Shown here: in pieces, positions 61,941 to 62,013 of the stretch
Numbering within the stretch: position 1 is the stretch's first letter
Layout of the letters: the number at the start of each line of letters is the position of its first letter
Made by a program: the position numbers and the translations under genes
Notes under the pieces: generated by a model
The model's database searches: none
Told to the model about the DNA's origin: nothing
What the model saw: the letters and a program-made list of their open reading frames with translations, nothing else
Assembly: GCF_003991155.1 (NCBI RefSeq)
Contig: NZ_CP031295.1
Length of the DNA: 64,000 bases
Source: Escherichia coli
GTDB lineage: Bacteria > Pseudomonadota > Gammaproteobacteria > Enterobacterales > Enterobacteriaceae
Strand: one strand, 5' to 3'

Positions 61941-62013
61941 GGGTGAAATGTACATCCCGCAAAACTTTTTGCCCAAAAGCAGGCAAAAACTTTTGCGGGA
62001 TGTACATTTCACC
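61941..62013. promoter_or_regulatory. large hairpin in leading region (Frpo/ssi-like single-strand element)
   Basis: 29-bp arms GGGTGAAATGTACATCCCGCAAAACTTTT / AAAACTTTTGCGGGATGTACATTTCACCC, 15-bp loop, upstream of ssb. Confidence 0.45.

Follow-up and report, generated by a model that had tools for sequence, protein, structure and literature searches.

A rare palindromic allele, probably hairpin-templated, in a putative Frpo-type single-stranded DNA promoter upstream of ssb

The window analysed here is a stretch of 64,000 nucleotides of Escherichia coli DNA (NCBI RefSeq assembly GCF_003991155.1, contig NZ_CP031295.1). Near its end, Pfam identified SopA (58663-59838) and SopB (59838-60809), which are followed by sopC repeats (twelve of 43 bp, about 60814-61420) and by the hairpin studied here. 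The first gene downstream of the hairpin is ssb (62189-62728, plus strand; Pfam SSB, 1.2e-37), the operon's second gene is a DUF905 gene homologous to yfjA (62785-63018, plus strand; Pfam DUF905, 1.5e-31), and psiB, which encodes an SOS inhibitor, lies further on (63298-63732, plus strand; Pfam PsiB, 3.3e-63). By its gene content, the locus is an F-like partition locus with a conjugative leading region directly after it. The order SopA, SopB, sopC, Frpo-type element, SSB, DUF905 and PsiB is also that of CP123591, the closest relative with the sopC-Frpo-ssb arrangement, where oriT and traM come next; about 216 plasmids have this arrangement. A ParB-like yfjB of about 1.8 kb is absent between the DUF905 gene and psiB (window 63033-63045), so that F 14488-16299 (locus L001) has no counterpart, and the same gap was seen in AP022106 and CP123591. 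Elsewhere, the window carries four repeats of about 770 nt (3654-4133, 35332-36103, 41365-42138, and 57620-58392), one of them directly upstream of sopA, where CP123591 has IS1A, as well as an 828-nt inverted pair (4715-5542 and 14520-15347) and diverged direct repeats of about 1.3 kb (5540-6860 and 11010-12310). These repeated mobile-element copies suggest a transposon-rich cargo.

A first-pass annotation had described a near-perfect inverted repeat with 29-bp arms and a 15-bp loop at 61941-62013. Reading the repeat pair by pair confirmed its existence and revised its dimensions: the arms span 61940-61973 and 61982-62015, ending two positions further right than first given and starting at 61940, and each is 34 nt long, with 33 Watson-Crick pairs and one C·C mismatch (61965/61990). 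Pairing is perfect over 25 bp between 61940-61964 and 61991-62015, and a further 8 bp (61966-61973 with 61982-61989) close an apical loop of 8 nt at 61974-61981, which reads CAAAAGCA on the plus strand in both the fold and the pair table. In a repeat search, the symmetry extended to 61-nt arms at 80% complementarity (61913-61973 and 61982-62042), and by an analytic estimate, about 4e-13 repeats of this kind would be expected by chance in 64 kb. The hairpin ends 173 nt before the ssb ATG (62189), in agreement with the earlier estimate of about 175 bp. The GC-rich setting reported for it holds for 61420-62188 (57.5% versus 50.4% for the whole window) and does not hold for the hairpin core itself (46%).

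The strand that enters the recipient was assigned from related plasmids. The sequence GCGTGGGGTGT/GGTGCTTT, which we take from the TraI literature to be the F nic site, was located on the minus strand in both F, where it falls between gene X and traM, and CP123591; in both plasmids, ssb is on the plus strand. With nic and ssb so placed, the minus strand of the window would be the transferred strand (T strand) and the template for ssb. By synteny with these close relatives, the folding (minus) strand is thus the transferred strand, with oriT beyond the window end. The left arm of the palindrome (61940-61973) is the complement of the T-strand 3' arm, and the right arm (61982-62015) is the complement of the T-strand 5' arm; in the model developed below, they correspond to the non-template and the template arm, respectively. 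A fold prediction on the transferred strand, proposed earlier as a check, gave a stable long hairpin: 61860-62190 of the minus strand folded as DNA at -91.7 kcal/mol, compared with -48.6 +/- 4.0 kcal/mol for shuffled sequences (z = -10.7; 0 of 100 shuffles equalled it), whereas the plus strand of the same interval folded less well (-83.6 kcal/mol, z = -7.9). Fold and covariation together define a long imperfect hairpin of the minus strand, about 240 nt in length, at 61860-62099. In the three alleles compared, the apex energies of the T strand and of its complement were -49.5 versus -41.0, -28.4 versus -19.5, and -24.2 versus -18.8 kcal/mol. The T strand folds better than its complement because several of the mismatches are G·T wobbles on the T strand only.

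The identity of the element was examined by homology. The F ssiD/Frpo sequence (D90178, taken as the reference from Supplementary Table 2 of Samuel et al. 2024, PMC11541004) matched the window by blastn with 93.3% identity over its full 350 nt, at 62159-61802 on the minus strand. We therefore take 61802-62159 (minus strand) as the whole Frpo-homologous element, in the position of Frpo2 (ssp1b). Compared with the copies in NC_002483, the element is 94% identical to Frpo1, which lies upstream of ygeA (18657-19004 in locus L001), and 86% identical to Frpo2, which lies upstream of ssb (13267-13614), and window 61797-63033 is collinear with F 13263-14488 (L001) at 94%. As judged from these alignments, the element sits at the Frpo2 position and has an apex sequence nearer to that of Frpo1. 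In leading regions, class-1 elements stand directly before early genes (ssb, psiB, ardA, or ygeA); the present one ends 30 nt before the ssb ATG, in a setting that F and CP123591 share by synteny. Homologues were found in at least 5000 plasmid records, in about 18,800 places in total; among the 5426 complete E. coli genomes, 3849 had them, the median being four copies. A gapped pattern, TGTCCGGGGGN{45,75}CCCTGGAC, gave 120 chance matches on genome contigs of unrelated genomes, none of them Frpo-homologous by blastn. The alignment to F Frpo, which had also been set as a check, thus revealed similarity to known single-strand promoters, and the earlier reading of the hairpin as a single-strand promoter of the Frpo/ssi type agrees with the homology, the Frpo2 position, and the transferred strand alike. 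The interpretation of the first-pass annotation is supported on these sequence grounds, and the element class is one already known.

A hairpin of the transferred strand in a leading region could also be a PriA-dependent primosome assembly site of the phiX174 type, such as ssiE of F, instead of an RNA polymerase promoter, and F does carry such sites. However, the element is homologous to ssiD/Frpo, which is the RNA polymerase-dependent site, and no homologue of F ssiE was found near the hairpin, the lone match in the window being a 35-nt chance match at about 2016-2049. We regard a PriA site as very improbable here.

Two further features flank the element. Window 61445-61806 is 87% identical to F NC_002483 56170-56528 (L001 11171-11529), which comprises the 3' end of a hypothetical CDS and the left half of the intergenic region upstream of klcA/ardB that holds ssp2. 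A class-2 single-stranded DNA (ssDNA) promoter is recognised by a TTGCAT-15-TAAGAT arm that pairs with a partner arm upstream of an antirestriction gene (klcA/ardB or ardA); in the window, the 3'-arm half TTGCAT-15-TAAGAT alone survives (T strand, 61777-61803), and the partner arm and klcA are deleted. The junction of this ssp2 remnant with the Frpo unit lies in the common sequence GGATGCAAGGGG. On the other side, between the large hairpin and ssb, there is a small hairpin at 62109-62132 (minus strand CCGCGGTTTTGACGTTTTGCGGGG) with a near-consensus TTGACG on the T strand. It is kept in the Frpo of F, of Serratia, and of the insect metagenome, and its orientation is unsuited to transcription toward ssb.

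The conservation of the pairing was analyzed in an alignment of 14 distinct apex sequences. The set consisted of the four palindromic copies, ColIb ssi1-3, and F-type copies of types a, b, and c drawn from plasmids of E. coli and Salmonella. Standard pairs occupied 93.5% of the cells, compared with 38-54% when the partners were slid by one to three columns. Compensatory changes were found at 9 pairs; sliding the partners left 0-2 such pairs and shuffling gave 4.4 +/- 1.1, with 0 of 500 shuffles reaching the observed value; the structure put to this test was derived from one of the aligned sequences. In this comparison of sequences, the hairpin pairs covary across the F and ColIb homologues.

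Because conservation tracks base pairing and not codons, these results also bear on the 71-aa ORF at 61948-62163, for which the repeat would be incidental if it encoded a small protein. PGAP annotates the ORF in AP022106, CP088367, and CP158184, sometimes as a 'single-stranded DNA-binding protein', and the net insertion of 9 nt in the allele described below preserves its reading frame. Yet it has no Pfam or NCBIfam match, and stop codons break the frame in F Frpo1 and Frpo2, in keeping with the first-pass statement that the hairpin region holds no convincing CDS. A coding function is the least credible of the alternatives that we weighed. An ORF of 68-71 aa across the hairpin (window 61948-62163; L002 12024-12239; L128 and L129 5972-6187) is widely called a gene, and the 'single-stranded DNA-binding protein' label on it is probably a propagated mis-annotation.

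The activity of homologous elements has been described in several studies. According to the accounts of Masai & Arai 1997 given in PMC9849209 and PMC7690428, Frpo as ssDNA forms a stem-loop that rebuilds the -35 and -10 boxes and recruits RNA polymerase in vitro, and its RNA can prime DNA synthesis. Deletion of Frpo2 abolishes the early expression of ssb and yfjA in transconjugants (Couturier et al. 2023, PMC9849209). A Frpo2 fragment equivalent to window positions of about 61891-62189 drives an anti-CRISPR gene (Samuel et al. 2024, PMC11541004), and the resulting protection needs both placement in the leading region and the T-strand transcription orientation (PMC11541004); the same study described an A+T-rich UP element upstream of the Frpo -35. 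The class-1 promoters (Frpo and ssi1-3) are the strongest of three classes, with start sites confirmed by 5' RACE (PMC12672017). In vivo, early conversion downstream of ssp1b/Frpo2 is rifampicin-sensitive, and ssp2, an ssDNA promoter with a stable hairpin, holds up conversion in F and requires UvrD for its resolution (bioRxiv 2026.01.09.698686). Promoter and primer activities are ascribed to the window element by analogy with this literature on homologues.

The near-perfect pairing of the window element is atypical of its family. On the 5' arm of the T strand, CP123591 (96% identical), F Frpo1, F Frpo2, and ColIb read GGGGG-CAGA-CCGC, whereas the window reads GGGGG-TGAAATGTACATC-CCGC. In alignments to CP123591 and F Frpo1/Frpo2, a 13-nt segment at 61999-62011 (GATGTACATTTCA on the plus strand, TGAAATGTACATC on the T strand) has replaced 4 nt (TCTG/CAGA), and TGAAATGTACATC is the exact complement of GATGTACATTTCA on the opposite arm, which is an unpaired bulge in ordinary alleles. 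Ordinary alleles share the left arm (61940-61973) unchanged. In all 17 ordinary sequences parsed (twelve distinct ones of F type, ColIb1-3, one from Serratia marcescens, and one from an insect metagenome, with the ColIb2 bulge read from the fold), the 3' arm carries a surplus of 8-12 nt that the window lacks. An asymmetric internal loop with 3'-arm excess is therefore family-wide in this sample, a regularity of the sample and not a published criterion, and within the bulge the F and ColIb families agree without exception at the positions G, T, A, T, and T. The predicted energy of the 97-nt apex is -49.5 kcal/mol in the window versus -28.4 kcal/mol in the ordinary allele, a gain of about 21 kcal/mol. 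The alignments explain the missing loop by a derived, templated insertion, and the element's shared descent with the family is not in doubt.

The frequency of the allele was gauged with an 86-nt query spanning the new junction, and a match was counted as the allele if it aligned without the 9-nt gap. In PLSDB, 2894 records matched the query, and the alignment was ungapped in AP022106 and CP088367 alone (2 of 72,556 plasmids). Among complete E. coli genomes, the query matched 2274, and the allele was present in AP022106 and CP158184 alone (2 of 5,426). The palindromic allele is thus known from three database plasmids (AP022106, CP088367, and CP158184), of which AP022106 and CP088367 are typed as conjugative. 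The exact palindromic junction pattern was found in 0 metagenome contigs, versus at least 120 with the ordinary junction.

This rarity also counts against a feature acting in double-stranded DNA, namely a terminator, a cruciform, or an operator for a dimeric regulator, as the near-perfect palindrome might suggest. More than 99.9% of homologues lack the palindrome, which therefore cannot be the conserved functional unit; in addition, it has no T-run, and a terminator scan found none at 61940-62030. The only Rfam hit, a hairpin-shaped match to mir-576 (window 61932-62023, minus strand), might be cited in favor of such a feature, but it is below threshold (41 bits versus a gathering score of 99) and belongs to a eukaryotic miRNA model, and we rejected it as an artefact of hairpin shape. 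A double-stranded role is, like a PriA site, very improbable.

Two forms can be told apart among the four palindromic copies: in the window and AP022106, both arms contain TGTACA, and in CP088367 and CP158184, TGCACA faces TGTGCA, so that the inserted segment matches each copy's own opposite arm in both the TACA and the TGCA form. The copy in CP158184 lies at the ygeA-proximal (Frpo1) position and not upstream of ssb. An ancestral palindrome was considered and rejected because the bulge is found in every diverged lineage and because palindromic copies fall, at 96-99% identity, inside groups of ordinary a- and b-type sequences. Quasipalindrome template switching, in which one arm of an imperfect repeat is rewritten as the complement of the other, is known from mutagenesis in E. 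coli. The two positions and the two arm-matched forms point to recurrent intramolecular template switching at a quasipalindrome, and on this sequence pattern at least two templated events are needed to explain the palindromic copies. Separate changes were seen in two of them. CP158184 (L129 5884-6124) has a compensatory A-to-C/T-to-G pair in the apical stem (CCGCCAAAG facing CTTTGGCGG), which changes the second T of the candidate -35 described below while the pairing stays perfect, and AP022106 has an A for G at the T·G wobble, which lengthens the perfect pairing.

Candidate promoter parts were then assigned on the T strand. The extent of the functional Frpo2 construct (Samuel et al., PMC11541004) confines the promoter to the apical 150 nt or so. 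Within this region, a candidate -35, TTGCGG, lies at 61957-61962 (minus strand), next to a candidate UP-like A/T-rich tract, AAAAAGTT, at 61963-61970 (minus strand), which is located in the apical stem and is the only A+T-rich tract of the element. The TTG of the -35 (columns 76-78) is kept in 13 of 14 homologues, CP158184 having TGG, and TTTTGnGG on the T-strand 3' arm is nearly invariant. At 17 nt after the candidate -35, TGGACT (61934-61939, minus strand) could serve as a -10-like hexamer, an assignment that is itself of low confidence. None of the 14 homologues departs from TGGAC except at the first G, which is an A in a single sequence (TAGAC), and all F-type and ColIb members have the motif, 15-17 nt further on. 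In the window, its T at -12 is wobble-paired (T·G) and its T at -7 faces another T; the first T is non-Watson-Crick in all members. The model places the start site in a mismatch block about 7 nt past the candidate -10, where 62026-62029 (plus strand) would form a 4x4 internal loop with 61926-61929. Promoter scans with the sigma-70 consensus on both strands of six family members revealed no conserved canonical promoter, and TGGACT makes a poor -10, lacking the A at -11 and matching TATAAT weakly; our confidence in this assignment of -35 and -10 is accordingly low.

Three other arrangements were rejected. A -10 inside the bulge (TACATT) varies at -11 (A, G, or T) and has no -35 at a usable distance. 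With the 5' arm as the non-template strand toward the loop (nnGACn-17-CAAAAT), there is no A+T-rich tract upstream of the -35 and no conservation in the a-type copies; this geometry is also ruled against by the analogy with class 2, which reads away from the loop. A basal-stem promoter, TTGAGA-17-CATCAC, would require a pairing partner that the functional Frpo2 construct of Samuel et al. omits. For the preferred assignment, the model predicts that the palindrome turns a 13-versus-4 spacer loop into a regular 17-bp duplex, leaving the non-template arm and the start mismatches unchanged. In its double-stranded form, the palindromic allele has TACATT with CAGGCA 17 bp upstream on the ssb-sense strand, a pair of motifs absent from ordinary alleles.

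Taken together, these results indicate, with a probability of about 0.88, that the hairpin is the apex of an Frpo/ssi class-1 ssDNA promoter at the Frpo2 (ssp1b) position, present as a rare allele that arose by quasipalindrome switching. In this model, the minus strand would enter the recipient first, as ssDNA, during conjugation, and 61860-62099 would fold into a long imperfect stem-loop mimicking a duplex sigma-70 promoter. Host RNA polymerase, stimulated by SSB, would initiate on the stem, presumably using the UP-like AAAAAGTT and the -35 TTGCGG, a 17-nt spacing, and the -10-like TGGACT with its non-Watson-Crick pairs, and starting near 62026-62030. It would copy the incoming strand toward ssb, DUF905/yfjA, and psiB (and then psiA in related plasmids) before the complementary strand is made, and the same transcript could prime synthesis of that strand. 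Conversion to double-stranded DNA would dissolve the hairpin and switch the promoter off. Template switching would have copied the conserved 13-nt bulge of the 3' arm onto the other arm, producing the 34-bp near-palindrome and removing the asymmetric loop.

Whether the palindromic allele acts like its ordinary relatives is a separate matter, since its conserved bulge nucleotides are base-paired and this may weaken or alter the promoter. In the stronger version, the element would be an Frpo homologue of altered function, in which sequestration of the bulge and the additional stability of about 21 kcal/mol weaken or abolish activity or create an ssp2-like block to conversion. The bulge in all 17 ordinary sequences, with nucleotides invariant across F and ColIb, favors this possibility, as do the apex energies (-49.5 versus -28.4 kcal/mol), the UvrD-resolved stalling of conversion by the stable ssp2 hairpin in F, and an allele that recurs but is very rare, as purifying selection would predict. 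However, the non-template arm, with the candidate UP tract, -35, spacer, and -10, is unchanged, as are the downstream mismatches; AP022106 and CP088367 are typed as conjugative, and rarity could reflect a low mutation rate. We consider altered function possible, though on balance doubtful. Its rarity and the conservation of the bulge nucleotides speak for some cost of the allele; that AP022106 and CP088367 are typed as conjugative speaks against a severe cost.

For the class-1 promoter itself, a broader and distinctly speculative proposal, which we think unlikely to hold as a whole, is that Frpo hairpins are hotspots for quasipalindrome mutation, possibly via stalled conversion in the recipient, and that the palindrome shifts the timing of early genes. 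The timing could change because the single-strand promoter is silenced by sequestration of the conserved bulge, because a hyper-stable block keeps ssb-psiB single-stranded for longer, or because the double-stranded allele has a weak sigma-70-like TACATT/CAGGCA site. The element class matters because it times the first genes of an incoming resistance plasmid, including those for SSB, the SOS inhibitor PsiB, and anti-restriction functions. What is new here is solely the allele, which is rare, recurrent, and hairpin-templated and does away with a structural feature found throughout the family. It amounts to a natural experiment: thousands of homologues are bulged, and here the stem has been 'repaired' to a palindrome, at least twice independently, so that a comparison of the alleles bears on whether the bulge is needed for single-strand promoter activity or for the pace of double-strand conversion.

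In its origin, the window allele resembles E. coli quasipalindrome mutations, in which an arm is likewise rewritten as an exact complement, recurrently at a site and matching local polymorphism; the likeness is one of sequence outcome. The promoter geometry assigned above recurs in the neighboring class-2 promoter of F, where the boxes are clearer: TTGCAT-15-TAAGAT occupies the 3' arm, and its AAG lies opposite TTT. F Frpo2 (ssp1b) is, like the window element, directly upstream of ssb on the same strand, with a long hairpin architecture and 86% identity over about 360 nt, and the two hardly differ over the 160 nt that separate the apex from the ssb ATG. Unlike the window element, F Frpo2 keeps the asymmetric internal loop, with TGGGCAGAA on one arm facing GGCTGTTCATTTACCCT, and its operon is ssbF-yfjA-yfjB-psiB-psiA, whereas the window has no yfjB downstream. 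F Frpo1/ssiD is 93-94% identical over 350 nt, and its 3' arm is the same save for TGCA where the window has TACA; it differs in lying upstream of ygeA near oriT, in having CAGA in the 5' arm in place of TGAAATGTACATC, and in an apex energy of -24 kcal/mol versus -49.5 kcal/mol. The class-1 elements ssi1-3 of ColIb-P9 and pESBL (Bates et al. 1999, Nasim et al. 2004, Wen et al. 2025) have the same architecture as the window element and share with its family TTTTGnGG, a bulge with G-T-n-C-A-T-n-T, and CCCTGGAC paired with GTCCGGGG. They differ in that identity is about 75% and confined to the central 100 nt or so, the basal stems are other ones, and the bulge is kept in all three.
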